From IMG/VR virus record IMGVR_UViG_3300045988_137393: 64,000 nt of DNA; one strand, given 5' to 3'. The DNA is from a virus. The notes beneath the pieces are model-generated. The model did not search any database and was not told the origin of the DNA. It worked only from the letters and a program-made list of their open reading frames with translations. Every line of letters starts with the position of its first letter. Position 1 is the stretch's first letter. Shown in pieces: positions 25,669 through 53,192 of this stretch. Position numbers and translations under genes: made by a program.

Positions 25669-25938
25669 ATGGAAAATTATAAAATTAGTTATAATGGTGA
25701 TACTCAAATAAAAAATATTCACCATATAGGTATTGATTATAATGGAAATTATTATAGTGTGATTTTCGGAGAATATGTAAATGGAGGATTCTTTAGTATT
25801 CCGAATTGGAATTGCGGTGGTGAGTTAGCTGGACTTAGCGATGTGTTTTGGAATACTGAATCTATTCAGAGATCATTAAAAAGTAAAAGAGCTTCTAAAG
25901 CTATTGCAAAAGCGATAGCAGATTATGTAAAGGAGTGA
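25669..25938 (+). CDS. hypothetical protein (89 aa)
   Basis: ATG after GGAAGGTGG. Confidence 0.6.
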   Translation: MENYKISYNGDTQIKNIHHIGIDYNGNYYSVIFGEYVNGGFFSIPNWNCGGELAGLSDVFWNTESIQRSLKSKRASKAIAKAIADYVKE

Positions 25939-25943
25939 TTGGT

Positions 25944-26963
25944 ATGTGTTATAAGATAGAAGTGCAAAATAGAAATGCAGAGAAACTTAATAGAAAGTTA
26001 GATGAGTTAAACGCACCACAGTTTTTAAGAGGTTATTTGAATGAGTTGGAAAGTAAAAGCGGAGCGTTAAATTATTTAGTGGCAATTAAAGATTTTTTAC
26101 AGTGGTTGATTGAAAGCAATATTATCAAAAAGAAATCAATTTCTGAAATAGAAGTTTCTGATTTTAGTGACCTGCGACCACAAAATGTTAGTTCATATCT
26201 TAGATATAAGGAAATGAATGGGATGTCACCGACTACAACGGAGACAAGAAAGAATATTATAAAAAGTTTTATAAAAAATGTATATTCGTATAGAGAATGT
26301 TTATTGAGAGAACTCTATAACAGTATGGAAGATTTTAGTAAACAAATAAAATATAAAGGAATATCCTCTAAAAACAACTTAACACAAAAACTTCCAACAG
26401 AAAAACAACTTAATGATATGGAAGAGAAAATAATGTGGAAAAAGGATGAATGTGTAAGAAATAGGAATATTGCAATCTTTCAAGTGTTAAGGGGAACTGG
26501 AATAAGAGAATCTGAACTTGCTGGCTTGGATTTATCAGATTTACATTTAGATGAAAATAGTGAATGTATTGATCTTAATGATATGTCACATATTATGGTT
26601 TTACCAAAAGGATATCAAAGAGAAACTGAAAAAAGATCTGTATATCTTACTGGATCTGCTCTGAAAGCATTAAGAGAATGGCTAGAATACAGAAATACAT
26701 TAGATAACATTGTAGATACGGAAGCTGTATTTATTAATAAAAACGGAACTCGTACAACGGAAAGAAATATCAAACAGATATTTGAGAATTATGGAAATGG
26801 TATTACTCCACATATGATGCGACATTATTATGCTAGTATAATGAACAGAAATGGAAATCTTGCATTTGTTCAGCAGCAGTTGGGGCATAGTAGTGTAAAT
26901 ACAACAGTTAATAATTATGCAAACGGAGCTGTTGGTATGAGAGAAAAATTGATGGAGATGTGA
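25944..26963 (+). CDS. tyrosine recombinase / phage integrase family protein (339 aa)
   Basis: Catalytic pattern RGTGIRESEL ... HMMRHYYAS ... LGHSSVNTTVNNY (R, HxxR, H, Y). Confidence 0.8.
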   Translation: MCYKIEVQNRNAEKLNRKLDELNAPQFLRGYLNELESKSGALNYLVAIKDFLQWLIESNIIKKKSISEIEVSDFSDLRPQNVSSYLRYKEMNGMSPTTTETRKNIIKSFIKNVYSYRECLLRELYNSMEDFSKQIKYKGISSKNNLTQKLPTEKQLNDMEEKIMWKKDECVRNRNIAIFQVLRGTGIRESELAGLDLSDLHLDENSECIDLNDMSHIMVLPKGYQRETEKRSVYLTGSALKALREWLEYRNTLDNIVDTEAVFINKNGTRTTERNIKQIFENYGNGITPHMMRHYYASIMNRNGNLAFVQQQLGHSSVNTTVNNYANGAVGMREKLMEM

Positions 26964-28261: not shown

Positions 28262-29999
28262 CCTAAAATGAAAAATTAAACCTGTACTTTGACAACTGAA
28301 AATGGCTATAAAAGGTCTAGTTTACTTTTTCTACAGCCCTTTCCAAGGCATGATATATTGGTTATATCGATTACTATCTGCTGGGAAAGGAGCAGATATG
28401 AATTATTACAATGCTAGCGGACAAATGGATCTGTCAGATCGAATAGCAATAGAAACTGGGATATGCATCGGGGAGTCATTCAAAAAAATAGCAAAAAGAC
28501 TTCGCAGACATCCATCTACTATTGCACATGAAGTTAAAGAAAACAGAACCTTCATTAAAGGTAATTACCCGAATGGAAAAGATTGCCGCATGGCAAGACA
28601 ATTCACAGTAAGGAATTTGTGCGGCTGTGATGAAGAAGCCTGTAATACAAAGTGTAGACTTTGCAGAGGAGTGGATTGTACCAAGGTATGCGATAGATAT
28701 GTATCAGTTGCTTGCCATAAGTTTGATTCGCCTCCGTATGTTTGTAATAACTGTAAGGATAAAAAGCTTTGCAACAAAGATAAGTATATTTACAGTGCGA
28801 AATTCGCTGATGCAGCTGTAACTCGTCGTAGATCGGAGAGTCGACAAGGAGTTAGACTTTCTGATGAAAAGAAGGAAGAATTGGATGAACTTGTGACTCG
28901 ACTTGTTAAGAAAGGCCAGCCTTTAACACACATATATGCAGAACATGAAAATGAAATGCCAGTGTGTTTGAGAACACTTTATAACTATATCGATGAAGGT
29001 GCCTTATCTATTAAAAACATAGATTTAAGAAGAAAGACAGGCTACAAACCACGAAAGAAAAAGTACAACGATATCAATGGATTTCACTCAATGGAGTATA
29101 GACAGTGTAGGACATATGAGGATTTTGAGTATGCGATGAAATTCAAATATTCAGAAGATGAAGTAACAGAAATGGATACTGTAAAAGGCGTTAGAGAATC
29201 TGGAAAGCGTTTGCTTACAATGATCTTTAGAAAGAACAACGTAATGCTACTATTCCTGATGCCAGATGGAAAAGCAGAATCCGTAAAAAGGGTTCTGGAC
29301 TATCTCGAGACAGGATTGGGAATAGATGTTTTTAGACGGTTGTTTCCGGTTATATTAACTGACAACGGCAGCGAATTCAAGAAGGTAGATGAGTTAGAAC
29401 TTACGCTGGATGAGGATGGCTTCCTAGTTTATAGAACAAGCCTTTATTACTGTGATCCAATGGCTTCATGGCAAAAAGGGTGTATCGAGAAGAATCATGA
29501 ATTTATTCGTTATGCCGTGCCAAAAGGAAAAAGCTTAAACCCATACACGCAAGAAGATATGACTTTATTAATGAATCATATCAATAGTGTAAAACGTCCT
29601 GGACTTGGAAATAAAAGTCCATACGAGCTCGTAGAAGAGGATGATGAAGATTTCAAAGCATTAATGTCATTATTAAAAATGCACCTCATCCCGCCAGATG
29701 AAGTGCATTTAATGCCAGATTTATTCGTTAAAAAGTAATTAGACCGAAGCTGCAGATAGTAATCGATTTGTCAATAGGTATTAAATAGACGGGTCGCATT
29801 TACTTTTGCATAACAAGTAGCCAGCCGTCTGTTAATCATGCAAACAAATATATACCTGCTATCTGGAATGCCTTAATTATAGCATGATATTTGAATTTGA
29901 ACATCCATTATTAGGGCTTTATTTGACCTTTATTTGACCTCAGAACAGAATTTTGATTATTAGACGTATTTTCAGTTGGGTTTTAGTTTTTCATTCAAG
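28262..29999 (+). mobile_element. IS30-family insertion sequence (~1.74 kb)
   Basis: Imperfect terminal inverted repeats: IRL CCTAAAATGAAAAATTAAACC..CAACTGAAAAT (28262-28303) against the reverse complement of 29966-30000, CCTTGAATGAAAAACTAAAACC-CAACTGAAAATAC. One DDE transposase ORF. Flanked by 14-bp direct repeats. Confidence 0.85.
28398..29738 (+). CDS. IS30-family DDE transposase (446 aa)
   Basis: N-terminal HTH LSDRIAIETGICIGESFKKIAKRLRRHPSTIAHEVKEN. TDNGSEF and WQKGCIEKNHEFIRYAVPKGKSL match IS30 catalytic-region signatures. ATG 7 nt after AAAGGAG. Confidence 0.85.
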   Translation: MNYYNASGQMDLSDRIAIETGICIGESFKKIAKRLRRHPSTIAHEVKENRTFIKGNYPNGKDCRMARQFTVRNLCGCDEEACNTKCRLCRGVDCTKVCDRYVSVACHKFDSPPYVCNNCKDKKLCNKDKYIYSAKFADAAVTRRRSESRQGVRLSDEKKEELDELVTRLVKKGQPLTHIYAEHENEMPVCLRTLYNYIDEGALSIKNIDLRRKTGYKPRKKKYNDINGFHSMEYRQCRTYEDFEYAMKFKYSEDEVTEMDTVKGVRESGKRLLTMIFRKNNVMLLFLMPDGKAESVKRVLDYLETGLGIDVFRRLFPVILTDNGSEFKKVDELELTLDEDGFLVYRTSLYYCDPMASWQKGCIEKNHEFIRYAVPKGKSLNPYTQEDMTLLMNHINSVKRPGLGNKSPYELVEEDDEDFKALMSLLKMHLIPPDEVHLMPDLFVKK

Positions 30000-30266: not shown

Positions 30267-30339
30267 AGGGCATTCGCCAAGCGGAGAAGGCATTGCACTT
30301 TGATTGCAAAATTCATCAGTTCGAATCTGATATGCCCTG
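30267..30339 (+). tRNA. tRNA-Gln (anticodon UUG), no encoded CCA
   Basis: AGGGCAT-TC-GCCAAGCGGAGAAGGC-A-TTGCA-CTTTGAT-TGCAA-AATTC-ATCAG-TTCGAAT-CTGAT-ATGCCCT-G. The D-arm is near-identical to that of E. coli tRNA-Gln. Confidence 0.9.
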
Positions 30340-30498
30340 CTTTGTGACATTCCACCCGGTATGTTACAGAACGCAAGAGATTTCCTTGTAAGAGCAAAAT
30401 GTGTAGTTGCTAAAGTTCTACCATAGTTTAATCCACTAACGGATTACAAGCTGATACTATAGAACTTCCTGATAAACTTGCGATAGTGTCAGCTACTT

Positions 30499-30572
30499 GG
30501 ATCATTAGCACAATTGGTTAGTGCATTCGGCTCATAACCGAAAGGCTCAGAGTTCAAGTCTCTGATGATCCA
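30499..30572 (+). tRNA. tRNA with CAU anticodon (elongator Met or Ile2), no encoded CCA
   Basis: GGATCAT-TA-GCAC-AATTGGTTA-GTGC-A-TTCGG-CTCATAA-CCGAA-AGGCT-CAGAG-TTCAAGT-CTCTG-ATGATCC-A. Lacks the three G-C pairs of an initiator anticodon stem. Confidence 0.9.
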
Positions 30573-30597
30573 TTGCTAAATCAAACAAAGAGAGGAG

Positions 30598-31421: not shown

Positions 31422-33629
31422 GTGCATGAAGTGAAAGACGAAATATTGCGTGAAAAATTAAATAATCTTTCATCACAACAGTTGGAATGGATTAATGAAT
31501 ACTGTGTAAATGATATGTCAAAATTGAAGAAAATTAGTTACAATGCATTTTTCAGGTATGGGATTCCAGCACATGAACATGACGAATTGTACGATGATGC
31601 AATGAATGTTCTGATGGAAAGTGTTATCAACTTTGATTCATCTCAAGGTGCGAGTTTTAAAACTTACCTTATTAATAATATTAAAAAATCTGTTATTGAC
31701 TGGTATAGAGACAACTATCAGAGATGTAAAAGAAAAAATCTATTAACTGATAAAAATGGAAAGATAGTAAAGGTTGATAAAAATGGAAATGTAACAGATG
31801 ACGATAAAGGAAAACCAGTTATTATTCCAGATACTTCATTTGATGCACCTACTGAAGAAGATAATGATTTAGTAGAAAAAATTGCATCTGACTTTAACGT
31901 AGAAGACAAGAGTGAGTTCGATTTTAGTGCCGATGAAAAAGTTGATAATTTTATTGATTCTTTGCCGAGGATACAAAAAAATATTTTGCTGATGCGGATG
32001 GAGAATGTTCCTGCTGATAATATAAAACAAAAATTGAATATATCAGACAGAGAATATAGTAGTGCTATGAAGTCAATTAAGATAAATAAAGGACTTTCAG
32101 TATTTTCAAAGAATAAAAATGATGGGAATTATGATGTGGAGGTAAATAATATGGAAGACAGAATTATTGAAATTAGCGAATCTGAAAATTACAGGACGGA
32201 CAAGTATAGCATGTATTCGTTGTTACAGGATAAGAAAAATGGAGACGTGAACTGCAACTACATCTTGCAACGTGAACCTTTTCAGTGGACTACAGAAGAA
32301 GCGAATAGATATTTTTGTCGTATTCTTAGTAATCTTCCTATTCCAGAAATTATTCTTTGTGAACAGAAGAAAAAGGGATTGACAATCTCTCATTTAATTG
32401 ACGGATTGCAGAGACTTTCATATGCTGAGGCATTCAAGGAAAATCGTATTAAGATTGGTTCAGCAGGAGCAGAGAGACATTTAATTCAGTATAGAGATTA
32501 TGTCTTAGATGATAATGGAAATCGTGTACTTGATGAAGATGGCTTACCAGAATATGAGATGAAAATATTTGATGTTATAGGGAAATATTATAAAGATCTT
32601 CCTGATGAGTTAAAGAAACGATTCAATAATTTCAATATAAACGTAACAAAATTCTTTGATTGTACAGATGAGCAGATTGCAGATCATATTCGTGATTATA
32701 ACAATCATGCGAGTATGAATAAGGAACAGGGTGGTTTTCTTAATGTATCTGCACAGACAGCGGGATATATTAAAAATATTTCACAGAAAAACACATTCTT
32801 TAAAAATTGTGGGAAGTTTACAGATAATAATGTTATTAAGGGAAAGTTGGAACGTGTTGTTGCAGAATCAATAATGTTAATGTTCTTCCGTGATTCATGG
32901 AAAGCAAAACTTGATACAATTTACAAATATGTTGATGAAAATGCAACAGAACAGCAGTTCTTAAAACTTAATTCACATTTTAATAGATTGGAATTAGCAT
33001 TAGGCGATGACAATAAAGACTTGAAGTCATTACTTACTCCAACTACAATGCCAATGTGGATTGCAGTATTTGATAAATTTACTACATATAATATTGAAGA
33101 TTCAAGATTCATTGATTTCTTAAGAGCATATAATACAGAACTTAAAGATAAAGAAGTTGATGGTGTATCTATGGCAGATTTTAAAGACCAACAGACAAAG
33201 AAAAAGGCAACTATTACAGGTAAAATTGATTTACTTATAAAACTGATGAATGAATTTTTACATATTGGTACAAGAGAAGTAAATAACACAGAATTGGAGA
33301 ATAACAATACGAAAGAAAGTGCTGAAGAAAATACGGAAGAAAGTGTTCTTTCCTTTGTTCAAGAAAATGCAAATCCAAATGTGACAGACGAAGATATAAA
33401 CCTTTACACAGACATGGTAGAAGATTGTGTTAAGATTGACGATCCAGTTTATAAAGAGTGTGGAATGGCATTAGTAGCACTCATGGCATATGCTTGTCAA
33501 AATGATAAGGATCAGGATTTTGAAAAATGGATTGAGAATTACAGAAATAAATCTGATTTTAGTTCATCACAGAAAGTTAATTATACATATATGAAACGCA
33601 GCTTTGATAATTTTATAGCAAATGCGTAA
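31422..33629 (+). CDS. sigma-70-family-like N-terminal module fused to a DUF262 (ParB-like) domain (735 aa)
   Basis: Region-2-like DELYDDAMNVLMESVINFDSSQGASFKTYLINNIKKSVIDWYRD. Region-4-like LPRIQKNILLMRMENVPADNIKQKLNISDREYSSAMKSI. Then the DUF262 core LQREPFQWTTEEANRYFCRIL...SHLIDGLQRLSYA. Confidence 0.65.
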   Translation: MHEVKDEILREKLNNLSSQQLEWINEYCVNDMSKLKKISYNAFFRYGIPAHEHDELYDDAMNVLMESVINFDSSQGASFKTYLINNIKKSVIDWYRDNYQRCKRKNLLTDKNGKIVKVDKNGNVTDDDKGKPVIIPDTSFDAPTEEDNDLVEKIASDFNVEDKSEFDFSADEKVDNFIDSLPRIQKNILLMRMENVPADNIKQKLNISDREYSSAMKSIKINKGLSVFSKNKNDGNYDVEVNNMEDRIIEISESENYRTDKYSMYSLLQDKKNGDVNCNYILQREPFQWTTEEANRYFCRILSNLPIPEIILCEQKKKGLTISHLIDGLQRLSYAEAFKENRIKIGSAGAERHLIQYRDYVLDDNGNRVLDEDGLPEYEMKIFDVIGKYYKDLPDELKKRFNNFNINVTKFFDCTDEQIADHIRDYNNHASMNKEQGGFLNVSAQTAGYIKNISQKNTFFKNCGKFTDNNVIKGKLERVVAESIMLMFFRDSWKAKLDTIYKYVDENATEQQFLKLNSHFNRLELALGDDNKDLKSLLTPTTMPMWIAVFDKFTTYNIEDSRFIDFLRAYNTELKDKEVDGVSMADFKDQQTKKKATITGKIDLLIKLMNEFLHIGTREVNNTELENNNTKESAEENTEESVLSFVQENANPNVTDEDINLYTDMVEDCVKIDDPVYKECGMALVALMAYACQNDKDQDFEKWIENYRNKSDFSSSQKVNYTYMKRSFDNFIANA

Positions 33630-33663: not shown

Positions 33664-33704
33664 AGATGGGCAACGATATGTCGTGAAGTTGCTGTTGCCC
33701 ATCT
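33664..33704 (+). terminator. strong hairpin (11-bp stem) downstream of the sigma-DUF262 gene
   Basis: AGATGGGCAAC..GTTGCCCATCT. No clear T-run. Confidence 0.5.
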
Positions 33705-33895: not shown

Positions 33896-34306
33896 ATGAA
33901 AATTATGGGAACAATTCGTAGATTTGACGACTTAGGTAGAATAGTAATTCCAAAGGAAATTAGAAGACTGGTGTTTGGAAAAGCAGACGCAATTGGTGAG
34001 CCAATGGAAATATTTATTGACGGAGGAAATGTTGTACTCCGAAGATACGAGGAAATACAAACTTGTAAATGGATAAAATACGATTATAGAACGATTTGCC
34101 CGAAAGAACATGACGATGCTGATGATCCATATTGGAGGATACCTGAAAATATGGCAAATTTAAAATATTGTCCTTATTGTGGCAAAGAGATAGTTGTTGT
34201 AAATAAAATCACAGTAAAACTTCGTTTCATTGTAAAAAATTTCTGGGCAATTCAGCTCAATAAAATTCCCAAATTAAAAAGAGAATATAGATATGTAACC
34301 AATTAA
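33896..34306 (+). CDS. AbrB/SpoVT-type DNA-binding domain protein with C-terminal Zn-ribbon (136 aa)
   Basis: GTIRRFDDLGRIVIPKEIRRLVF is the AbrB/MazE swapped-hairpin signature. CPYCGK near the C-terminus. Confidence 0.7.
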   Translation: MKIMGTIRRFDDLGRIVIPKEIRRLVFGKADAIGEPMEIFIDGGNVVLRRYEEIQTCKWIKYDYRTICPKEHDDADDPYWRIPENMANLKYCPYCGKEIVVVNKITVKLRFIVKNFWAIQLNKIPKLKREYRYVTN

Positions 34307-34346
34307 CATTCATATATAAAAATTATAGAAAAGGATAGTAAAACAG

Positions 34347-36947
34347 ATGAATGGATTGAGTAGTAAAGAAGTTCTCAAAAGTAGAGAGCTTCATGGAAGT
34401 AATAAGCTTCCTGAACCAAAGTTGGACAAGTGGTATGACTTCGCAAAGGAGGCATTAAGTGAGAAAATCACAATGATTCTTATTGCAATTGCAGTATTAC
34501 AGTTATTCCTTGGAGTCATGGGATTAATGGATTTATCAGATCCAATTATGATTCTTGTTGTATTAGCAATTGTAACATGTATTGCTGTTAAGACTGGACT
34601 TGGTGTTCAAAAATCAGCAGCAGAGTTGAGAGCCAAAACATCAGTCAGGTATTGTGACGTAATTCGTGATGGCAAAGTTCAAACAATTAATAAGGATGAA
34701 TTGGTAGTTGGTGATATTGTTTGTGTAGGAATGGGACAAGAGATTTTTGCAGATGGATATCTCATTGAAGGTAAGATTTCTGTAAACAATGCAGCTATTA
34801 ATGGAGAAACAAAAGAGTGTAAGAAAACACCAATTGAAGGATACGTTCATAAGAAAACTACTTCAACAGATGCTTATACGAATAAGAATTGCTTATTTGC
34901 TGGCACAACAGTAATGTCAGGCGAAGGAAAAATGATTGTTACTGATGTAGGTGTGAATACAGTAAATGGTGATACACTTGTTAAAATGCAAACACTTGAA
35001 GCACCAAAGACAGCACTTGATATTGCACTTGATAATCTGAGTGACTTCATTTCTAAGTGGGGAACAATCGCAGCCGTTATTACATTTGCGGTACTTACAA
35101 TTTCAGGAATTGTGCAGGTTGGATTTGGAGAATATTTTAGCGGTGGCGTTCTGAATATTATTCAGAAAATTGCACAGAACTTCTCAGTAGCATTAACAAT
35201 TATTGTAGCTGCTGTTCCCGAAGGATTGCCTCTTATTGTAAAACTTGTAACAAAACAGAATGTAAAGACAATGGAGAAATTCAATATTCTTGCTAAGAAT
35301 CCTGGTAAAATTCCAGAGTTAGCATATGTTGATATTATCTGTACTGATAAGACAGGTACTCTTACGACAGGTGTTATGACTCCAAAGAAGATTATTGATG
35401 GCTTTGGTAACGATGTAAATAAGGATTCAGTTCTTTGGAATAATATCAAGGCAAACATTTCTTTAAATAATAGTGCAACATTTGATTCAGAAAACAATAT
35501 TACAGGTGGTAATTCAATTGATAGAGCAGTTCTTAGCCTTGTAAATCCTGAAACATATGCTGACATTCAGAAAAAATATCCAGTTAAGTTAAAGCAGGTA
35601 TTTAATAGTAGTAATAAGTATTCAGCTTTTACGACAAAGGATGGAATTACATACTATAAGGGTGCACCTGAGAAACTGATTGAGCATTGCACAAAAGTAA
35701 TGGACTCAAGTGATAAAATTGTAGACAATAACGACAATGACACATTAAGTAATGCAATTACAGCAATGACAAGTAATGCAATGAGATGTATTGCAGTTAC
35801 AATGGCAGATGGTGATTTAGTAGAGAATGAAATACCGAATGATATGACATTCCTTGGAATTATTGGTGTTGTAGATCCTGTAAGAGATGAAGTACCGAGT
35901 GCAGTAAAAACAGCACATAAGGCTGGTATTCAAGTTATTGAAATTACAGGCGATTGTATTGAGACAGCAGTTGCAGTTGCTACAGAGTGTGGAATTTACA
36001 AAGATGGAGATTTAGCACTTACAAATGATGAATTTGAAGCGATGTCAGATGATGAAGTAAAGAGTATAATTCCTCGATTGAGAGTTATTTCAAGGTGTTC
36101 ACCAAACACAAAACTCAGACTTGTCACATTAGCACAGGAGATTGGAAAATCAGTTGCAATGACAGGTGATGGAGTAAATGATAGTCCTGCTTTAAAGAGA
36201 GCCGATGTTGGTTTTGGTATGCAAGGTGGTTCAGATGTTGCAAAAGAAGCATCAGATATTGTATTAACAGATGATAACTTTGCAAGCGTTGTAAAGGCAG
36301 TAGAACTTGGAAGAACATTTATGCACAATATTATGATGTTCCTTGAATTCCAGTTACCTATCAATATTTCACTTCTGATTCTCAGTGTTATCTATCCAAT
36401 GATTGTAACAGGTGCATTGCTCGCTTCAGTTCAGATTCTGATTGTAAATATCATTATGGATTCCCTTAATTCACTATCATTCGGTGGCGAACCACCAAAA
36501 GATGAGTATATGACAGAGAAACCTATCAAGAAGGGTTCTGGCTTATTCATTAGAGGAGCAAAGAAACGTATTGCAATTAGTACAGTAGCATTTATTGTAC
36601 TCTATGGAATTATTACATTTAGTCCAATTTCAGATATGTTTGCAACTGAAACAGAGGCTATAACAGCGAGATTTGCATTATTATGTTTCATGGCTGTATT
36701 TAATGGATTTAACATTCGTACAGAGCATATTAATTTATTCAATGGTATTGGAAAGAACAAGTTATTTTCAGCCATTGCAATCGGAATTTTTGTAATGACG
36801 ATTGCTCTTTGTAGCTTTGCGGAAAATCTTATTAAGGTCACAGCTTTAGATTTCAAACATTGGGTAGTAGTTGTAATTTTAGCCTTTATGGTTATTCCAA
36901 TTGATCTTATCAGAAAGATTATTGAGAAGAAAAGAGAGAATAAGTAA
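34347..36947 (+). CDS. P-type (P2-like) cation-transporting ATPase, probably Ca2+ (866 aa)
   Basis: N-terminal LSSKEVLKSRELHGSNKLPEPK. Phosphorylation site ICTDKTGTLT. Hinge MTGDGVNDSPALKRADVGFGM. PEGLP in M4. Multiple TM segments. Confidence 0.9.
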   Translation: MNGLSSKEVLKSRELHGSNKLPEPKLDKWYDFAKEALSEKITMILIAIAVLQLFLGVMGLMDLSDPIMILVVLAIVTCIAVKTGLGVQKSAAELRAKTSVRYCDVIRDGKVQTINKDELVVGDIVCVGMGQEIFADGYLIEGKISVNNAAINGETKECKKTPIEGYVHKKTTSTDAYTNKNCLFAGTTVMSGEGKMIVTDVGVNTVNGDTLVKMQTLEAPKTALDIALDNLSDFISKWGTIAAVITFAVLTISGIVQVGFGEYFSGGVLNIIQKIAQNFSVALTIIVAAVPEGLPLIVKLVTKQNVKTMEKFNILAKNPGKIPELAYVDIICTDKTGTLTTGVMTPKKIIDGFGNDVNKDSVLWNNIKANISLNNSATFDSENNITGGNSIDRAVLSLVNPETYADIQKKYPVKLKQVFNSSNKYSAFTTKDGITYYKGAPEKLIEHCTKVMDSSDKIVDNNDNDTLSNAITAMTSNAMRCIAVTMADGDLVENEIPNDMTFLGIIGVVDPVRDEVPSAVKTAHKAGIQVIEITGDCIETAVAVATECGIYKDGDLALTNDEFEAMSDDEVKSIIPRLRVISRCSPNTKLRLVTLAQEIGKSVAMTGDGVNDSPALKRADVGFGMQGGSDVAKEASDIVLTDDNFASVVKAVELGRTFMHNIMMFLEFQLPINISLLILSVIYPMIVTGALLASVQILIVNIIMDSLNSLSFGGEPPKDEYMTEKPIKKGSGLFIRGAKKRIAISTVAFIVLYGIITFSPISDMFATETEAITARFALLCFMAVFNGFNIRTEHINLFNGIGKNKLFSAIAIGIFVMTIALCSFAENLIKVTALDFKHWVVVVILAFMVIPIDLIRKIIEKKRENK

Positions 36948-36963
36948 TTGAGGAGATGAGAGC

Positions 36964-37167
36964 ATGGTAAGGAGAGATAAAAGTTATAAAAAAGTAGAGA
37001 TTATTACTATTATATGCTTTTCAATTAGTGTTATTACAGTATGTATTACACGCTTTATTCCATTTATTTTTCTGACGTTACTCACATTCCCAATTTCTTT
37101 TAAATTATTAAAAGGGAAGGTTGACAGCCTTCCCAAGAATAAGGAGGACAAACAATATGTCAATTAG
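36964..37167 (+). CDS. small membrane protein (67 aa)
   Basis: ATG 8 nt after AGGAG. Two hydrophobic segments. Confidence 0.55.
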   Translation: MVRRDKSYKKVEIITIICFSISVITVCITRFIPFIFLTLLTFPISFKLLKGKVDSLPKNKEDKQYVN

Positions 37168-37735
37168 TTTAGTTAAAGGTCAGAAGATTGACCTTACAAA
37201 AGGTAATGCAGGTTTAAACAAAGTCGTATTTGGTCTTGGATGGGATACAAATAGATACGATGGTAATGCAGATTTCGATTTGGATGTATCAGCATTTTTT
37301 ACTGATGATTCAGGAAAGGTAACAGGCGAACAGGATTTTGTATTTTATGGTCAGCCACAGCATCCAAGCGGAGCATTGATTTATTCTGGCGATAATAGAA
37401 CAGGTGTAGGTGATGGCGATGACGAGACAATGATTGTTGAGTTAAATAAGATTCCATCTAATATTACAAAGATTAGCTTCTCAGCGACAATTTATGATGC
37501 AGAAAATCGTTTACAGAATTTCGGAATGGTTGATAATTCGTACATTAGAGCATACAACGCTGATACAAATGAGGAACTTTTCAAATATGAACTTAATGAG
37601 GATTTCTCATTAGAGACAGGTGTTATTGCAGGTGAGTTGTATCGTAAGAACGGTGAATGGAAGTTTAATGCAGTTGGTTCAGGTTACAATGGTGGTTTAG
37701 CTGCTATTGGTAGAAATTTTGGTCTTGATTTATAA
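37157..37735 (+). CDS. terD: TerD-family (tellurium-resistance/Ca2+-binding) protein, paralog 1 (192 aa)
   Basis: MSISLVKGQKIDLTK..GLGWD..DFDLDVSAF..GDNRTGVGDGDDE..GEWKFNAVGSGY. ATG 8 nt after AAGGAGG. Confidence 0.9.
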   Translation: MSISLVKGQKIDLTKGNAGLNKVVFGLGWDTNRYDGNADFDLDVSAFFTDDSGKVTGEQDFVFYGQPQHPSGALIYSGDNRTGVGDGDDETMIVELNKIPSNITKISFSATIYDAENRLQNFGMVDNSYIRAYNADTNEELFKYELNEDFSLETGVIAGELYRKNGEWKFNAVGSGYNGGLAAIGRNFGLDL

Positions 37736-37753
37736 AATGGAAGGAGAATATAT

Positions 37754-38329
37754 ATGTCAGTAAATTTAGTAAAAGGACAGAAAATTAATTTATCTAAGGA
37801 AGTAGCAGGTGGTCTTACAAAGATTATGGTAGGACTTGGATGGGATGCTGCTAAGAAAGGATTATTTGGTTCTAAGCCAAACATTGATTGCGATGCTTCA
37901 GCAATTATTTTAGGAAAAGATGATAAGTATCGCACATGTGTTTATTATGGTGACAGATCAGCGGAAGACAGATGTGTGTATCATCATGGCGACAACCTCA
38001 CAGGAGATGGAGACGGTGATGATGAGCAGATTACAGTTGATCTTGCGAATATTACAAATAAGGTTGAGAAGATTGTATTTGTAGTAAATATCTATGATTG
38101 TATTTCAAGAAAGCAGGATTTTGGACTTATCAAGAATGCGTACATTAGACTTGTTGATGAGTCAACTGGTAAGGAAATTTGTAAATACAATCTTTCAGAT
38201 GATTATGCTGGCAAGACAGCAATGATATTTGCAGAGGTTTATAAGAAAGACGGAGAGTGGAAATTTAACGCTATCGGTCAGGGAACAAATGATTCAAGTG
38301 TTAGCGAATTAACAAGAAGATACAAATAG
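37754..38329 (+). CDS. terD: TerD-family protein, paralog 2 (191 aa)
   Basis: MSVNLVKGQKINLSK..GLGWD..GDNLTGDGDGDDE..GEWKFNAIGQG. Confidence 0.9.
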   Translation: MSVNLVKGQKINLSKEVAGGLTKIMVGLGWDAAKKGLFGSKPNIDCDASAIILGKDDKYRTCVYYGDRSAEDRCVYHHGDNLTGDGDGDDEQITVDLANITNKVEKIVFVVNIYDCISRKQDFGLIKNAYIRLVDESTGKEICKYNLSDDYAGKTAMIFAEVYKKDGEWKFNAIGQGTNDSSVSELTRRYK

Positions 38330-38341
38330 GAGGATTTAATT

Positions 38342-38923
38342 ATGTCAGTTTCGTTAAGTAAAGGACAGAGAGTAGATTTAACAAAGGGTAGACCGTCATT
38401 AAAAAACATTCTTGTTGGACTTGGATGGGATATTAATCATTATGATGGAGAAGCAGATTTTGACCTCGATGCATCCGTGTTTATGACAAAAGAGAATGGT
38501 AAGGTTGGCAAGGATGAGGATTTCATTTTCTATGGTAATCTTGAACATAGTTCAAAGAGTGTAAAGCATATGGGAGATAACCGTACAGGTGAGGGAGATG
38601 GAGATGATGAGGTTATTAAGATTAAACTTGATAAAATCCCATCAGACTACGAGACTCTTGCTGTGACGGTCACAATTTATGATGCTGAGAGTAGACTTCA
38701 GAACTTCGGTATGGTTGGAAATGCATATGTGCGTGTAGTAGACGAAGAGACAGGCGAGGAACTTATTCGTTTTGATTTAAGTGAAGACTTCTCTACCGAG
38801 ACTGCGTTAGTCGTAGCTGAAATTTATAAACATAATGGTGAATGGAAGTTTAAGGCTGTAGGAAGTGGCTATAACGGTGGATTAAAAGCATTATGTAATC
38901 AGTATAGAATTGATGCAGAGTAG
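38342..38923 (+). CDS. terD: TerD-family protein, paralog 3 (193 aa)
   Basis: MSVSLSKGQRVDLTK..GLGWD..GDNRTGEGDGDDE..GEWKFKAVGSGYNGGLKALC. Very close to the B. subtilis YceD pattern. Confidence 0.9.
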   Translation: MSVSLSKGQRVDLTKGRPSLKNILVGLGWDINHYDGEADFDLDASVFMTKENGKVGKDEDFIFYGNLEHSSKSVKHMGDNRTGEGDGDDEVIKIKLDKIPSDYETLAVTVTIYDAESRLQNFGMVGNAYVRVVDEETGEELIRFDLSEDFSTETALVVAEIYKHNGEWKFKAVGSGYNGGLKALCNQYRIDAE

Positions 38924-38932
38924 GAGGATTGT

Positions 38933-39682
38933 ATGACAAATTTTATGTTTATTATAATTGTGGCGATTGTATTAATTGCACTGATCCTTTTCTTTACTCC
39001 TTTTGGTAAACAGCTTCGAGTAAAATTTAAAGGAAGAACGGATGAAGTGATGCGTCAGGATGCACAGACACCAGAAGGTGCTAGAGATTATTACAATGCA
39101 GCCATTAGAGAAAAGGAAGACTTTTATAACAAGGCATCTGCTACATATGCTGAAATTTCAGGAAAGCGTGATACAGCAGAAAAAGACTTATATCAGGCGA
39201 ATAAAGATATTATGCGTGTTACACAGCAGATTAATGCTTGTCTTGATGAAAATAAAGAAAATGAAGCAATGCAGTATGCAATGAAGAAGTCTACTTTGGA
39301 GAATAAGATTAATGTACTAAAAGATACAATTGAAGAGATGAAAGAAGCACAGGTTCACCAAAAAGACATTCGTGATCAGGTAGCCGAAGAATTGCAGAAA
39401 CTTAAAGAGGAAAAGGAACAGGTTCTTTTTCAGATGGAAGCTGATAGTCAGATTATCGAACTTCATCAGAGTATGGATAGTCTTAATACGAATAATGAGA
39501 GCGATAGAATGCTTGAAAGAGTTCGTGAAGGAGCAAGAAAGACAAGAGAACGTGCAGAAGGAAGTAGAATTGCATATGATTCTAGCGCACAGGCTAATGA
39601 GAGAAGACTTGCTAATTCTGAAAGAGAGCGCAATGCTCGTCAGATCCTTGATGATATGAAGAGACAGAGGGGTAATAAGTAA
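38933..39682 (+). CDS. membrane-anchored coiled-coil protein, PspA/IM30-like (249 aa)
   Basis: N-terminal TM FMFIIIVAIVLIALILFF, then long heptad-rich helices resembling PspA/LiaH. TelA-like is not excluded. Confidence 0.5.
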   Translation: MTNFMFIIIVAIVLIALILFFTPFGKQLRVKFKGRTDEVMRQDAQTPEGARDYYNAAIREKEDFYNKASATYAEISGKRDTAEKDLYQANKDIMRVTQQINACLDENKENEAMQYAMKKSTLENKINVLKDTIEEMKEAQVHQKDIRDQVAEELQKLKEEKEQVLFQMEADSQIIELHQSMDSLNTNNESDRMLERVREGARKTRERAEGSRIAYDSSAQANERRLANSERERNARQILDDMKRQRGNK

Positions 39683-39774
39683 TGATTGTATTAAACATTG
39701 GAGTTTTCGTAATCTGTCTTGGAGTATGCTTTGGAGCAGGTTTTATTGTAGGAAAACGTAAAAAGAATAAATAA
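39682..39774 (+). CDS. small membrane peptide (30 aa)
   Basis: TAATG overlap with the upstream stop. MIVLNIGVFVICLGVCFGAGFIVGKRKKNK*. Confidence 0.45.
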   Translation: MIVLNIGVFVICLGVCFGAGFIVGKRKKNK

Positions 39775-39879
39775 TTCAAGAGTTAGTAGGTGTCATAGCC
39801 TACTGACTCTATCAATACACCATATGTAGTGATTGGAGAATGTAATATATACTTTATATGGTGTATAAATTGCATTAGA

Positions 39880-39921: not shown

Positions 39922-40170
39922 TTGAAAGTTGTTGGAAACAAAGAAGATGTTAATCGAATAGAATTGTCACATAAAGGTTTGAATGTCAGTTTTAATTGTT
40001 CTATGAAGCCATTGCCTTATGATTATAATATTGATATATCTAAACCTAAAACAATTGAGATAATATTCAAAGATTCTTACGAAATAGAAGCTTTGATAGA
40101 TGTATTAGAAAAATTTAAAAAAGAGTGTTTTGGGCTTATTGGAGAATGGAGACAATATTATGACGAATAA
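39922..40170 (+). CDS. hypothetical protein (82 aa), TTG start
   Basis: TTG 7 nt after GGAGGTG. Overlaps the Tpt1 start by 11 nt. Confidence 0.6.
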   Translation: MKVVGNKEDVNRIELSHKGLNVSFNCSMKPLPYDYNIDISKPKTIEIIFKDSYEIEALIDVLEKFKKECFGLIGEWRQYYDE

Positions 40171-40702
40171 AGAGCAAAATAATTTAAGCAAATACATAGC
40201 ATTAATTCTTAGACATAGACCTGATGTTGTTGGCATCACATTAGACGAACATGGCTGGGCTAATGTATCAGATTTATTAAAGGGAATCAATAAAACTCAG
40301 ACAATTACAATGAAAATGCTTGAAAAAATTGTAGAAGAAGATTCTAAACAGAGATATTCATTTAATCGAGAGAAGACGCTTATCAGAGCAAATCAAGGTC
40401 ATTCTGTAAAAGTCGATGTAGAATTGAAAGAGTGTATGCCACCAGATATTTTATATCATGGAACAGGTGTTAAATATTGCTCTTCAATCAATAAACAAGG
40501 GTTAATATCCAAGAGTCGTTTATATGTCCATCTATCAAAAGATATTGAAACAGCAACAAATGTTGGCAGTAGACATGGAGAACCGTTTATTTATAAGGTT
40601 AGAGCAAAAGATATGTATAATGACGGATATAAATTCTTTTTATCTCAAAATGATGTATGGCTTACAAAAGAAGTACCAATCTGTTATTTAGAAGGAGAAT
40701 AA
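40160..40702 (+). CDS. kptA: RNA 2'-phosphotransferase, Tpt1/KptA family (180 aa)
   Basis: LSKYIALILRHRPDVVGITLDEHGWANVSDLL..IRANQGHSV..LYHGT..SRLYVHLS reproduces the Tpt1 R-H-R-R motif context. Confidence 0.85.
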   Translation: MTNKEQNNLSKYIALILRHRPDVVGITLDEHGWANVSDLLKGINKTQTITMKMLEKIVEEDSKQRYSFNREKTLIRANQGHSVKVDVELKECMPPDILYHGTGVKYCSSINKQGLISKSRLYVHLSKDIETATNVGSRHGEPFIYKVRAKDMYNDGYKFFLSQNDVWLTKEVPICYLEGE

Positions 40703-40706
40703 TACA

Positions 40707-41255
40707 ATGTCAAATTTATATGTATATTTAATTCGTTCTCGTAACAAGGATAATAAGGATATTCCAAATTTTAAGCAACGAGATAAGACAATTCTTGAAT
40801 ATAAAGAGAATGAAGACGAAATAATTGAAGAATTTAAAAGTTTTGCAACTAAAGGAGTTCCTGGTGAACAGACAAGATTATATAGATCAGTTAATTCTAG
40901 GAACGAAGAGAAAATCAGGGAAGAATTTATTATTCGTCTGCTGAGAGACAAGCCAAGTATGACACAGCTTAATCGTACATTAGCTTCAGTTGCACAGCAA
41001 GTACAAAATCGTGACGAGAGTAAATGGTTGTTTGACTTTGATGTGGACAATGAAGAAAAAGTAGAAGATTTTATTGACGATATTTATTTTTATTCAGAAT
41101 TGGATAATCACGAATTGCATAAGACTCCACATGGCTATGCAATCATTGTTCCGCATAGATTTGATACAAGAGAGTTGATGGAAAAGTGGAAAGATTATGA
41201 TATCACATTGAAGAAAGATGAGTTGTTGTTTTTGGATATGATAACGAATAAGTGA
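40707..41255 (+). CDS. hypothetical protein (182 aa) embedded in the Tpt1-CCA-DHH operon
   Basis: ATG 4 nt after the GGAGAATAA junction. No family recognised by eye. Confidence 0.7.
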   Translation: MSNLYVYLIRSRNKDNKDIPNFKQRDKTILEYKENEDEIIEEFKSFATKGVPGEQTRLYRSVNSRNEEKIREEFIIRLLRDKPSMTQLNRTLASVAQQVQNRDESKWLFDFDVDNEEKVEDFIDDIYFYSELDNHELHKTPHGYAIIVPHRFDTRELMEKWKDYDITLKKDELLFLDMITNK

Positions 41256-41292
41256 TATTTTATTGATATACCAAAAATTGAGGTGAATTTGG

Positions 41293-42702
41293 ATGAAAAG
41301 ATTGAAAATTGAAATTCCATCTGGTGCAAATGAAATTATCCATAGTCTACAAAACAATGGATATGAAGCTTTCTTAGTTGGAGGGTGCGTAAGAGATAGT
41401 ATTCTTGGCAGAATAATTCACGATTATGACATTACAACTTCTGCCACACCAGATGAAATGATGGAAGTATTTAAGGATAAAAGAATTATTGAAACTGGAT
41501 TACAACATGGAACTATTACCATTATAATTGACGGTGAAGGATATGAATGTACCACTTACAGAATTGACGGTAATTACTCAGATAGTCGTAGACCTGATAG
41601 CATAACATTTACACGAAATCTTAAAGAAGATTTAAAGCGTAGAGATTTTACAATCAATGCGATGGCATACAATGATGAAGTTGGACTTGTAGATCCGTTT
41701 AATGGCATGGAAGATATTGAGCATTATAAAATCAGATGTGTTGGTAGAGCAGAGGATAGATTTTCAGAAGATGCTTTAAGGATTTTACGTGCTATTCGGT
41801 TTGCTTCACAACTGGGATTTGTCCTTGAACCTGATACAGATTGGAATATCTCTAAAATGTATAAGAATTTGGAGAATATATCTATTGAAAGGATCAATAG
41901 TGAGTTCTGTAAAATTGCTGCATCGAGTGATTTCTGTGTACAAATGGTCTTATATCACGAAGTATTCTCATTGTTCATTCCTGAAATTAAAGATATGTTT
42001 GGCTTTCAACAGAATAATCCATATCACATGTATGATGTATGGAATCATACCGTACATGCAGTACAAGCATATTCTTGTGATTGTGAAGAAGACTTAAATC
42101 CAATAGATTTAATTACGTCATTAGCGGTGTTCTTTCATGACATAGGAAAGCCACACTGTTATCAAGACGGTGAGGATGGCATTAGACATTTTAAAGGGCA
42201 TGGAAAAGTCAGTGCTGATATGACTGATACAATTATGAAAAGACTTCGTTTTGATAATGATACAAGAGAAAAAGTAGTGCAGCTTGTTTATTATCATGAT
42301 GCAACTTTTGAAGTGGGTGAAAAGTATATCAAGAGATGGCTCAATAAGATTGGAGAAGAACAATTTAGAAGATTACTGAATGTTCGTAGAGCTGATATTA
42401 AAGCGCAGGCTTATACAGAGCAAGAGAGTAGGCTTCAGAAAATTGACAATATCGAATATATCTTAGAGGAAGTTTTACAGAAAGACGAATGTTTCTCACT
42501 GAAAGATTTGGCTGTTAATGGCAATGATTTGATTGAGATTGGATATAAGCCAGGAAAAGAAATAGGGAATACACTGAATTGTCTTTTACAGTTAGTAATT
42601 GAAGGTGTATATCTAAACGAGAAAAGTGAGTTACTTAAATATGTTGAGACAACAAAAGAATGGATGAAGTTAGGAGAGAATTATAATGGTAAGATTATTT
42701 AG
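41293..42702 (+). CDS. cca: CCA-adding enzyme (class II tRNA nucleotidyltransferase with HD domain) (469 aa)
   Basis: GGCVRDSILGR, HDYDITT, EDLKRRDFTINAMAY, and the C-terminal HD motif FFHDIGKPH. Confidence 0.88.
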   Translation: MKRLKIEIPSGANEIIHSLQNNGYEAFLVGGCVRDSILGRIIHDYDITTSATPDEMMEVFKDKRIIETGLQHGTITIIIDGEGYECTTYRIDGNYSDSRRPDSITFTRNLKEDLKRRDFTINAMAYNDEVGLVDPFNGMEDIEHYKIRCVGRAEDRFSEDALRILRAIRFASQLGFVLEPDTDWNISKMYKNLENISIERINSEFCKIAASSDFCVQMVLYHEVFSLFIPEIKDMFGFQQNNPYHMYDVWNHTVHAVQAYSCDCEEDLNPIDLITSLAVFFHDIGKPHCYQDGEDGIRHFKGHGKVSADMTDTIMKRLRFDNDTREKVVQLVYYHDATFEVGEKYIKRWLNKIGEEQFRRLLNVRRADIKAQAYTEQESRLQKIDNIEYILEEVLQKDECFSLKDLAVNGNDLIEIGYKPGKEIGNTLNCLLQLVIEGVYLNEKSELLKYVETTKEWMKLGENYNGKII

Positions 42703-43609
42703 CCACAGTGATTTAGACGGAATCGGTTGTGCAGTTTTGGCAAAACTTGCATTTGGTAAAGATGTAGATATTTCATACTGTGATTACGACAATATTGATT
42801 CAACTGTAAAGGAATATTTGGAAACAGAACAGGACGACACAATCCCAATTTATATTACCGATATTCGTGTCAATGAAGAAACTGCTGAGTTGCTAAATAA
42901 AAGAGGCAATGTTCAGTTATTAGATCATCATCCAACAGCTCTTGGATTAAATAAGTATGATTGGTGTGATGTAGTTATCGAAGATTCCAAAGGAATTAAA
43001 ACATCGGGAACTATGTTGTTTTATCATTGGTTAGGTATGAATGGTAGCCTGAGTGAAGAGTTAGAGAATAATAATGCGTTAGAGAGATTTGCTGAATTAG
43101 TGAGAGATTATGACACTTGGAGATGGTCAGAACTTGGTGAAGATGGAGTTATTTGTAAGCAGGTGAACGATTTACTTTATCTGTATGGTCGAGATGATTT
43201 TATTCATTGGTGTATTTCGGAGATACGTGGTGAAATATTCCCATTGTTATCTGCTAAAGATGAGGTTGTTCTGAAGATTAAGCAGGATGAAATTGATAGA
43301 TATATCAAGGAGAAGAATGAAACCATGTTTACCAGTCCTATGTGTGGTAAGGTTTGTGGTTTTGTATTTGCAGATAGGTTTGTTAGTGAATTAGGTAATA
43401 GACTTTGTAAAATGCATCCTGAAATTGATTTTGTGGCAATGATTGATATTGATGGTTGTACGGTATCTTATAGAACCGTTAAAGAAGATATTGATCTTGG
43501 TAAAGATGTAGCAAGTTTATTTGGTGGCGGTGGTCATCCAAAAGCTGCTGGTTCAGAATTTGGTCAGAGTATTAAGTTGAAAATTATTGGGGAAATCTTT
43601 GGACAGTGA
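42686..43609 (+). CDS. DHH/DHHA1-family phosphoesterase (NrnA-like) (307 aa)
   Basis: SHSDLDGIGCA (motif I), ITDIR (II), LDHHP (III), GGGGHPKAAG (DHHA1). Overlaps cca by 17 nt. Confidence 0.8.
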   Translation: MVRLFSHSDLDGIGCAVLAKLAFGKDVDISYCDYDNIDSTVKEYLETEQDDTIPIYITDIRVNEETAELLNKRGNVQLLDHHPTALGLNKYDWCDVVIEDSKGIKTSGTMLFYHWLGMNGSLSEELENNNALERFAELVRDYDTWRWSELGEDGVICKQVNDLLYLYGRDDFIHWCISEIRGEIFPLLSAKDEVVLKIKQDEIDRYIKEKNETMFTSPMCGKVCGFVFADRFVSELGNRLCKMHPEIDFVAMIDIDGCTVSYRTVKEDIDLGKDVASLFGGGGHPKAAGSEFGQSIKLKIIGEIFGQ

Positions 43610-53183: not shown

Positions 53184-53192
53184 GAGTTATTT

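Follow-up and report, generated by a model that had tools for sequence, protein, structure and literature searches.

TerD proteins and the Ter loci that encode them have been without a clear mechanism for decades, and Ca2+ signaling in bacteria is poorly defined. TerD proteins bind Ca2+, ter operons confer resistance to phages and colicins, and proteins of the PspA/Vipp1 type stabilize damaged membranes. Here, we analyze a block of seven genes in the IMG/VR virus record IMGVR_UViG_3300045988_137393, in a stretch of 64,000 nucleotides (nt) that is called the window throughout, where the gene for a predicted Ca2+-pumping P-type ATPase is followed by those for a small protein with two transmembrane (TM) segments, three TerD paralogues, a PspA-like protein and a peptide of 30 amino acids (aa). 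The block is kept as one cassette of fixed order in two phage lineages and looks, from its gene content, like a trimmed and re-tooled version of a clostridial Ter stress-response locus.

Our literature searches found nothing closer to this cassette than the Ca2+-translocating P-type ATPases described in Jug phages and further huge phages of the gut (PMC12880540, Sci Adv 2026; preprint 10.1101/2025.08.10.669567, August 2025). In the main text of that paper, the ATPase gene of the Jug phages is reported to be highly transcribed together with that of a small protein encoded upstream, each Jug phage has three terD genes of which one adjoins a pspA-like gene, four smaller phages of 159-197 kb are included, and the phage ATPases are most similar to those of Bacillota. 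As far as this description goes, the Jug phages resemble the window lineage in the carriage of a Ca2+ P-type ATPase by a gut phage, in the presence of several terD genes and in the small protein co-transcribed with the Jug pump, and the phages of 159-197 kb with their Bacillota-like ATPases fit the sizes found in the window lineage. In the account of the Jug phages (Bacteroides/Phocaeicola hosts, 360-402 kb), however, the ATPase and the terD/pspA-like genes form separate operons, whereas they make up one tight cassette here, and the small partner of 77-91 aa lies upstream of the pump, whereas the two-TM protein lies downstream of it here. The 30-aa peptide, an optional vWA-TerF gene and the covarying 3' hairpin of the window cassette do not figure in that account, and the main text of PMC12880540 draws no link from the pump to TerD or PspA or to bacterial Ter loci; it also cites a functional Ca2+ P-type pump encoded by a Chlorella virus. 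That gut phages carry genes of these types is already known. What is new, as far as can be told, is the single conserved cassette with its three arrangements, the TM-anchored branch of PspA, the two conserved micro-proteins and the covarying 3' hairpin, as well as the pairing of pump and TerD as the rule in clostridial Ter loci.

The Ter loci of Clostridia and other Firmicutes (yceCDE-yceGH type) share with the phage cassette the tandem TerDs, including the subtype of the second TerD of the window, an adjacent PMCA-type ATPase with the same ion-site residues and an occasional vWA-TerF gene. In contrast to these loci, the cassette lacks TelA, YceG, the rhomboid protease and the nucleoside-like biosynthetic module (phosphoribosyltransferases (PRTases), ATP-grasp_Ter, HAD, HpcH), it has two additional small TM proteins together with a PspA-like protein that is anchored by a TM helix and unrelated to TelA, and its ATPase is 35-37% identical to theirs. 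The terZABCDEF determinants of IncHI plasmids and Escherichia coli O157 likewise hold several TerD paralogues with the Ca2+-motif, whereas the phage cassette is without TerB, TerC or a TerA architecture and has a P-type ATPase as its membrane component. The Chlorella virus, whose Ca2+-ATPase is not known to be linked with TerD or PspA, is a giant virus of eukaryotes, unlike the source of the gut-phage pump. With PspA, LiaH and Vipp1 (IM30), the phage PspA-like protein shares the helical-hairpin core, which aligns in register, and a length of ~220-250 aa, and the small membrane partner beside it loosely recalls LiaI-LiaH; it differs from them in having a true TM helix instead of an amphipathic helix and no PspBC/PspF or LiaFSR partners. 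A 2024 survey of phage shock protein systems mentions neither TerD, Ca2+ and P-type ATPases nor a viral context.

The initial annotation of the window had the genes and their order right: the seven genes of the block and an AbrB-type open reading frame (ORF) ahead of it are all found on the + strand where it had placed them. Two details needed revision. The gene for the first TerD paralogue is real, but its start, put at 37121 or 37154, is most likely ATG 37157, which would give the length of 192 aa called in relatives; the 67-aa membrane peptide is likewise real, but has two TM segments rather than one. The gaps between the eight genes are, in order, 40, 16, -11, 18, 12, 9 and -1 nt, those within the block from ATPase to peptide ranging from -11 to 18 nt, and the start of the peptide gene overlaps the PspA-like stop by 1 nt. 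Domains were called by profile searches against Pfam, PHROGs and NCBIfam, and the cassette consists of the following features:

34347-36947, + strand: P-type ATPase gene, 866 aa, predicted PMCA-type (P2B-like) with a single ion site (site II)
36964-37167, + strand: small two-TM protein, 67 aa, conserved core of ~50 aa
37157-37735, + strand: TerD paralogue 1 (TerD1), 192 aa, PF02342 at 4e-75
37754-38329, + strand: TerD paralogue 2 (TerD2), 191 aa, PF02342 at 5e-68
38342-38923, + strand: TerD paralogue 3 (TerD3), 193 aa, PF02342 at 1e-83
38933-39682, + strand: PspA/IM30/Vipp1-like protein, 249 aa, N-terminal TM helix followed by a long helical hairpin
39682-39774, + strand: single-TM micro-protein of 30 aa (MIVLNIGVF...GKRKKNK)
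39779-39810, + strand: stem-loop at the 3' boundary, 13-bp stem with a GGTGTCATAGCC apex

The cassette is widespread among phages. At least 163 IMG/VR contigs, many of them 100-250 kb long, match the ATPase protein at 70-99% identity, and a search of representative sequences added a relative at 48% ATPase identity (P0242) with kin on another 41 viral contigs, the longest of 222 kb; in total, relatives are present on more than 200 IMG/VR contigs. Two phage lineages whose ATPases are ~49% identical carry the cassette. The comparison was made by mapping synteny with tblastn across 80 related loci and by tabulating the genes of additional copies. Among the 119 loci with enough downstream sequence, all but one (118) have the ATPase, one or more TerDs and the PspA-like protein in the same order. 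Three arrangements occur, with one to three cytoplasmic TerDs, and two of them (A and B) belong to the window lineage. Arrangement A consists of the ATPase, the optional small TM protein, three TerDs, the PspA-like protein and the peptide. In arrangement B, the ATPase is followed by a vWA-TerF-like protein of 255 aa (PF10138, 1.4e-59), a single divergent TerD, a PspA-like protein that is 33-36% identical and the peptide; the third arrangement, seen in the kin of P0242, combines vWA-TerF with three TerDs. Both flanks vary from phage to phage, with toxin-antitoxin, GmrSD-like, YopX, RlaP, methylase and DUF8224 genes, while the block from ATPase to peptide is fixed.

With this, the view of the block as a phage-borne unit holds. 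That it might instead be a functionless passenger, a fragment of a host Ter locus lately picked up by one phage, is a reading we hold to be hardly credible. Blocks of ATPase and TerD genes homologous to those of the phages do exist in host-type genomes, but the phage ATPase is only distantly related to them, the cassette includes parts peculiar to phages, namely the small TM proteins and the PspA-like phrog_33389 family, and the order is conserved, with intact ORFs in 118 of the 119 loci, across lineages that have diverged to 49% ATPase identity. A syntenic and intact block of this kind effectively rules out a recent host fragment without function.

The assignment of the ATPase to the Ca2+ type is borne out by several comparisons. 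Its domains in Pfam (Cation_ATPase_N, E1-E2, HAD/Cation_ATPase as well as Cation_ATPase_C, the architecture of a pump with 10 TM segments) all score above cutoffs, and the only NCBIfam model that it passes, if marginally, is the PMCA-type model TIGR01517 (512.6 bits, cutoff 507.05), on which the orthologue of arrangement B scores 509.7 bits. Lower scores were obtained with the models for PMR1-type (408), SERCA-type (333), H+ (252) and Mg2+ (220) pumps, those for PMR1, SERCA and Mg being far below cutoffs. Among solved structures, Arabidopsis ACA8 (4e-98), human SPCA1 and Listeria LMCA1 come closest. The DKTGTLT and hinge (TGDGVNDSPALKRADVG) motifs listed in the initial annotation are both present, and no phage or ter-linked homologue departs from the phosphorylated Asp. 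The residues of ion site II are kept in all phage copies, namely the Glu of PEGLP in M4 and the Asn and Asp of an N-x-x-M-D signature in M6 that agrees in the alignment with the plant PMCA-type pump ACA8; an Asn in M5 is conserved as well, whereas the positions of Glu771 and Glu908 of SERCA site I are occupied by Leu and Ala. Because site II is present and the two Glu positions of site I are replaced, the protein would be a pump of the PMCA kind that moves one Ca2+, and it is predicted to be a PMCA-type (P2B-like), single-site Ca2+ pump. A calmodulin-binding autoinhibitory extension is absent from the 866-aa protein, which aligns to residues 139-1025 of ACA8 only; bacterial members of the PMCA type usually do without such an extension. 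GenBank records labeled as phages of Listeria ('Listeria phage LM 4-14-1'), Enterococcus and Salmonella also match the ATPase, and were rejected as instances of phage carriage since they look fragmented, host-contaminated or bacterial; OR848199, OR846620, AFYI01000007, MT836648 and other 'phage' records that match the ATPase or the TerDs resemble fragments of host chromosomes or bacterial contigs, and such matches are not to be taken as phage carriage.

All three TerD proteins of the window are full-length PF02342 domains (229-280 bits, E-values from 5e-68 to 1e-83), and each has kept the GDNxTGxGDGDDE motif, which the initial annotation had pointed out as Ca2+-binding, along with an upstream D-x-D-x-D motif. 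TerD3 is the one nearest to bacterial TerDs, with an identity of 60-68% to clostridial proteins and of ~60% to the solved, Ca2+-binding Klebsiella TerD 2KXT (8e-73). TerD2 forms a separate subtype with an IDCDAS motif and a short C-terminus, in which it groups with proteins from two other loci (L002:14196 and L001:2213) and which corresponds to the third TerD of bacterial loci.

The coiled-coil protein behind the TerDs, which had been called PspA-like from its sequence, is backed as such in two ways. A profile built from 16 diverse orthologues, including gp247 of phage G, has Vipp1 or PspA chains as its seven best matches in the PDB (best 2.2e-7), with profile positions 55-211 aligned in register to residues 29-186 of the Vipp1/PspA chain. 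The AlphaFold2 model (mean predicted local distance difference test (pLDDT) score 80.5) has a TM helix at residues 2-21 and hairpin helices at 47-105 and 109-214, the hairpin with a pLDDT >90, and its best Foldseek matches are again of the PspA/Vipp1 type (6zvr, 8qbs, 8qbw, 4whe, 8qhx, 7o3x), with a root-mean-square deviation of 2.5 Å over 119 columns for E. coli PspA (4WHE). Most orthologues carry a precomputed PF04012 match, and the window protein matches phrog_33389 at 4e-31. The hydrophobic helix at residues 2-21, kept in all orthologues, replaces the amphipathic helix alpha0 of PspA/Vipp1 and is followed by a conserved DA(S/Q)TPEGA(K/R)xYYNAAI motif. We accept the protein as a TM-anchored member of the PspA/Vipp1 (ESCRT-III) superfamily.

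The phrog_33389 family comprises 544 homologues and has been encountered only on phage sequences (gp247 of phage G, IMG/VR loci); in the set of 80 bacterial Ter loci, its only occurrences are on two contigs of metagenome-assembled genomes (MAGs), both of them phage copies. A remote homology between TelA and the PspA-like protein was rejected (hhalign probability 0.25%), and PADLOC gives a weak coiled-coil match of the PspA-like protein to PbeC (5.5e-5). In Bacillus phage G (L003 5678-12763) and in a faecal contig (L004 1469-5528), the family is found without TerD or ATPase, after a conserved gp246-like protein that starts with MAKKSFFE(K/R)(I/L)G, next to genes for ABC-transporter permeases and ATPases and with OmpA/MotB-domain proteins downstream. 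The PspA-like protein would here be the center of another membrane module of phages.

The two small membrane proteins and the 3' end of the cassette are conserved as well. The two-TM protein, which has no family match in Pfam or PHROGs and is missing from some sub-lineages, has a core common to both phage lineages, RD(K/R)xYKxVENITLICY..T(R/K)F(I/L)PFI(F/L)L..(Y/F)PIS, although their ATPases are 49% identical; we consider it a candidate for a pump-associated subunit. Nearly every locus of either lineage has the 30-aa peptide, whose gene abuts or overlaps the PspA-like stop. Its identity stays at ~78% in comparisons in which that of the PspA-like protein has dropped to 33%, that of TerD to 38% and that of the ATPase to 70%; its conservation follows the pump more closely than the PspA-like neighbor. 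In almost all lineages, a stem-loop comes 4-6 nt past the stop of the peptide gene, with quite different stem sequences, and an alignment of 11 versions has compensatory double changes at 9 of the 11 pairs. As the initial annotation had proposed, hairpins that fold stably lie both upstream and downstream of the genes (upstream, dG -18.6 kcal/mol, z -2.9; downstream, dG -20.6, z -6.1). Of these two, conservation has been demonstrated for the downstream one only, and a consensus scan for canonical terminators calls none at either. No other copy of the apex of the 3' stem-loop occurs in the window. Since the stem-loop has no U-tract in the window lineage, as opposed to the second lineage, which has one, it is perhaps not a classical terminator; it is probably a 3'-end or mRNA-stabilizing element or an atypical terminator.

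Several small TM proteins encoded together with a membrane-stabilizing protein are also what a lysis-timing device might look like, in which the PspA-like protein and the small TM peptides would counter premature depolarization by the holin in the manner of an antiholin and Ca2+ would be the timing signal. PspA is classically induced by membrane stress of the phage secretin or holin type. We nevertheless think this very improbable, as no holin, endolysin or spanin genes are near the cassette in any of the inspected loci, the neighbors being RNA-repair and DNA-modification genes, and as the PspA-like family of phage G keeps company with ABC-transporter and OmpA/MotB genes.

On the 5' side, the cassette appears to begin with the non-coding leader of the ATPase gene, and not with the AbrB-type regulator behind which the initial annotation had placed it. 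The features on this side are as follows:

33664-33704, + strand: upstream hairpin, directly after the stop of a sigma/GmrSD_N gene
33896-34306, + strand: AbrB/SpoVT/MazE-type ORF, 136 aa, Cys-rich C-terminal part
34215-34346, + strand: conserved non-coding leader of the ATPase gene, ~130 nt with approximate boundaries, including the ribosome-binding site

The ~110-130 nt before the ATPase start are nearly identical in close relatives, whatever gene precedes, and a core (GAGAATAT..ATGTAAC) is kept in L028, L047 and L062; the promoter of the cassette is presumed to lie inside this leader. The N-terminus of the AbrB ORF scores below the cutoffs of PF04014 (18.9 bits, cutoff 24.7) and TIGR01439 (22.8 bits, cutoff 28.3) and matches TIGR02851 at 5e-12, and the ORF matches phrog_4681 at 5.8e-13. 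The upstream region is hypervariable, with an AbrB-type gene within 1.6 kb of the ATPase in only 4 of 79 loci; one homologue (L016) has 104 aa, ends in ...CPYCGKEIVVVDK and does not adjoin the ATPase, another gene lying in between. The last ~32 codons of the window ORF fall in the conserved leader, and in relatives the 'AbrB' tblastn matches, at about -130, are intergenic. The 136-aa ORF is thus a 104-aa protein with read-through into the ATPase leader, a fusion in effect, and, given its presence in 4 of 79 loci, the 104-aa version and a leader conserved whatever gene precedes, the AbrB gene is a strain-specific neighbor outside the cassette core.

Two candidates for promoter elements were rejected: a 20-nt motif of the leader, considered as a recurring phage promoter, occurs once in the window, and an enriched 9-mer (GAGAATATA) mostly reflects ribosome-binding context. 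A Shine-Dalgarno-like GAGA followed 9 nt later by an ATG-TAA start-stop mini-ORF in the leader (34294-34299) may be coincidence. The upstream hairpin, which has no U-tract, is probably a 3' element of the sigma/GmrSD_N gene and lies outside the cassette. That gene is a 735-aa ORF at 31422-33629 (+) in which an N-terminus like region 2 of Sigma70 (PF04542, phrog_351) is fused to GmrSD_N/DUF262 (PF03235), with a PADLOC match to NsnA at 1.6e-10; relatives have either one 734-aa gene (L085) or separate genes for a sigma-like protein of 216 aa and a GmrSD_N protein of 499 aa (L086-L088).

To place the cassette among bacterial loci, 80 Ter loci were fetched from GTDB genomes by their similarity to TerD3, with 10 kb on either side. 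They come mostly from Lachnospiraceae, Ruminococcus, Blautia, Oscillospiraceae and C. difficile. A P-type ATPase match lies within these limits in 64 of the 80, usually adjoining the TerD genes; YceG and TelA are found in 56, and the PRTase/HpcH module in 33-38. The common order is YceG, TelA, two or three TerDs and the ATPase, and some loci have the ATPase followed by three or four TerDs as in the phage. Other recurrent genes encode a HAD phosphatase, ATP-grasp_Ter, an AIM24-family protein and a protein kinase, occasionally with vWA-TerF. A rhomboid protease is encoded in 21 of the loci (L092-L169), and a fusion of a YceG domain with a trypsin-like peptidase in 23. The ter-linked ATPase ORFs are full-length and stand at the 35-37% identity to the phage pump given above, compared with 31% for a Listeria pump and 24% for MgtA; all share the ion-site residues of the phage pump, and the four that were tested are of the PMCA type above the cutoff. 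In a neighbor-joining tree with 56 ter-linked ATPases, which has no support values and draws on a biased sample, the phage pumps form one clade beside the ter-linked clostridial pumps.

Given the pairing in 64 of 80 loci, it is normal for clostridial Ter loci to have a Ca2+ pump in the slot of TerC, and this is not the phage novelty for which the initial annotation had taken it. TerC and TerB have no Pfam match among the eight cassette proteins, AbrB ORF included, and TelA, YceG and the biosynthetic genes have no tblastn match in the window, the lineage-1 flanks or the lineage-2 loci. The arrangement of pump and TerD appears to be inherited from a host-type Ter locus, and its transfer to the phage seems to be old. 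A high-GC faecal contig (L001, MT840059) encodes a partial PMCA-like ATPase (33% identical) and then two TerDs at 19-3436, with no PspA-like gene after them, by which the order from pump to TerD reaches beyond low-GC Clostridia. The 'Bacteriophage sp.' record MT836648 (L002) was rejected as a phage, being a bacterial-type Ter locus with MetRS, Moa genes, YceG and TelA.

The position of the ATPase also bears on the ion it carries. TerC is a Mn2+ exporter for the metalation of secreted proteins in Bacillus, and the ATPase could replace it in the export of Mn2+ or another divalent metal, with the TerDs as metal chaperones or buffers. The ATPase of the clostridial Ter loci does stand in the TerC position, no recurrent TerC-like gene having been seen among them; the second-best NCBIfam model for the phage pump is that of the PMR1 type, and pumps of the PMR1/SPCA type carry Mn2+ as well as Ca2+; and the geometry of a single site II is common to SPCA1 and the phage pump. 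Set against this, the PMCA-type Ca2+ model is the best and the sole one above its cutoff, the M6 signature agrees with that of ACA8, and the documented ligand of TerD is Ca2+, so that we regard metal export as improbable.

The conserved order in 118 of 119 loci between variable flanks, the conserved small TM proteins and leader and the covarying 3' hairpin speak for selection on the whole unit. We give about an even chance to a reading in which the cassette keeps the host energized and intact so that a large phage can finish replicating. In a phage-carrying cell, the whole unit would be expressed as one transcript. When the membrane is stressed or breached, be it by replication of the phage itself, a superinfecting phage, bacteriocins, bile or the pore-forming effectors of abortive infection, Ca2+ would leak in from the Ca2+-rich gut lumen and be bound by the TerDs, acting as buffers or sensors. 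On the membrane, the anchored PspA-like protein would polymerize and stabilize or reseal it, while the pump would bring cytosolic Ca2+ back to a low level, the two small TM proteins being likely accessory subunits of the pump or of the PspA-like protein. The manipulation of host Ca2+ or envelope-stress signaling that the initial annotation had suggested, for superinfection exclusion, lysis timing or countering abortive infection, is plausible on the same gene content.

Several observations weigh against this reading of the cassette as a Ca2+-responsive, membrane-protecting unit. The sequence of the ATPase is compatible with Mn2+ transport, and the cutoff of TIGR01517 is passed by only ~5 bits. 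In arrangement B, whose only TerD reads GKHYDE instead of GDGDDE and has 8 inserted residues, the acidic motif is disrupted, so Ca2+ binding is not universal among cassette TerDs. The PspA-like protein of the window aligns over its full length to PF04012 with 27.1 bits, below the gathering cutoff of 33.9, and the Foldseek E-values of its model are weak (8e-3 to 9e-2). Six unplaced representatives with 40-43% identity are nearer to the phage clade than the ter-linked set is. One locus (L006 13390-17200) is without the rest of the cassette after TerD1 and has unrelated genes instead. Finally, the function of the cassette, its ion specificity and the contacts of TerD with PspA and of the peptide with the pump are predictions from sequence. 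Of the six representatives, P0243, an ATPase relative at 43% identity, has no IMG/VR match; L006 is otherwise a near-identical copy of the phage, and its gap may be a natural loss or a chimeric assembly.

The genomic setting brings in another beneficiary, the lysogen. The window has a GC content of ~32% and nearly all of its long ORFs on one strand, and contains no phage structural genes. It carries genes for an integrase, a transposase, a ParB-like protein, a CCA-adding enzyme, a DHH phosphoesterase, Tpt1/KptA, RNA ligase, polynucleotide kinase and several DNA methylases. Near-identical ATPase copies number in the thousands in a collection of 5.8 billion proteins; one has the nr label 'MAG TPA: Cation transport ATPase [Caudoviricetes sp.]' and another is labeled 'calcium-translocating P-type ATPase, PMCA-type [Agathobacter rectalis]'; the hosts are probably gut Bacillota, Lachnospiraceae such as Agathobacter rectalis. 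Identical proteins occur on a 124-kb contig of an isolate-type assembly (GCA_039751555.1) and on an 818-kb contig, which makes a temperate or episomal lifestyle in Lachnospiraceae likely. The integrase (25935-26963), the transposase (28302-29738) and the ParB-like gene (7553-8500), together with contigs of 0.5-0.8 Mb, hint at a prophage or phage-plasmid.

In such a state, the cassette could act as a moron of lysogenic conversion or exclusion, expressed from a resident prophage or episome to give the lysogen Ter-like resistance to phages, colicins or bacteriocins, oxidants and tellurite. The integrase, transposase and ParB-like genes point in this direction, as do the identical ATPase proteins in isolate-derived assemblies and on contigs of 0.5-0.8 Mb, which suggest residence, and the IMG/VR ids derived from isolate genomes. 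The conserved leader and 3' hairpin of its own give the cassette the look of an autonomous unit, and its surroundings are a hypervariable island where toxin-antitoxin, GmrSD-like, methylase and RNA-repair genes are found. Moreover, ter operons are known for phage (the Phi phenotype) and colicin resistance, a property echoed in PMC8123226. Against this stand the lack of any match of the ATPase or the TerDs to a known defense system in PADLOC, the co-orientation of the genes in the 64-kb window, which leaves independent expression not evident, the absence of TerC, TerB and TelA of the classical resistance determinant, and the high transcription of the homologous genes of Jug phages in active phage populations, as reported in the main text of PMC12880540. 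Lysogenic conversion seems to us somewhat unlikely as the primary role; it overlaps with the maintenance of the infected host proposed above and differs from it mainly in the time of expression and in who benefits.

RNA-repair genes lie around the cassette at 40130-43609 and 52020-54077 (Tpt1/KptA, CCA-adding enzyme, DHH phosphoesterase, RNA ligase and polynucleotide kinase), and in relatives RlaP is directly beside the ATPase; this toolkit looks like a counter-measure to tRNA-cleaving defenses. ARAGORN finds tRNA-Gln(ttg) and tRNA-Met(cat) genes at 30267-30340 and 30498-30573 and an 88-nt tRNA-like gene at 3809-3896 with a two-base anticodon 'tt', which may contain an intron or be a false call.

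In eukaryotes, membrane repair by ESCRT-III is triggered by the influx of Ca2+. More speculatively, and on balance unlikely, the phage cassette could be a viral and bacterial counterpart of this repair, in which TerD (with the copine-like vWA-TerF, where present) would sense Ca2+ and recruit or activate the PspA-like polymer, while the micro-proteins would tune the pump in the manner of regulins. If this were true, the TerD family and the Ter loci would be Ca2+ sensors of envelope breach.

The cassette amounts to a Ter system reduced to a Ca2+ pump, TerDs and an ESCRT-III-type protein that has been kept intact across deep phage divergence, and this reduction and conservation make it a compact unit in which a coupling of Ca2+ influx to membrane protection by TerD can be put to experimental test. 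The two conserved micro-proteins may be regulators of a P-type pump. These phages abound in data sets from the human gut, and their host is probably one of the major butyrate producers, so the fitness of the host in the gut may be affected by the cassette.

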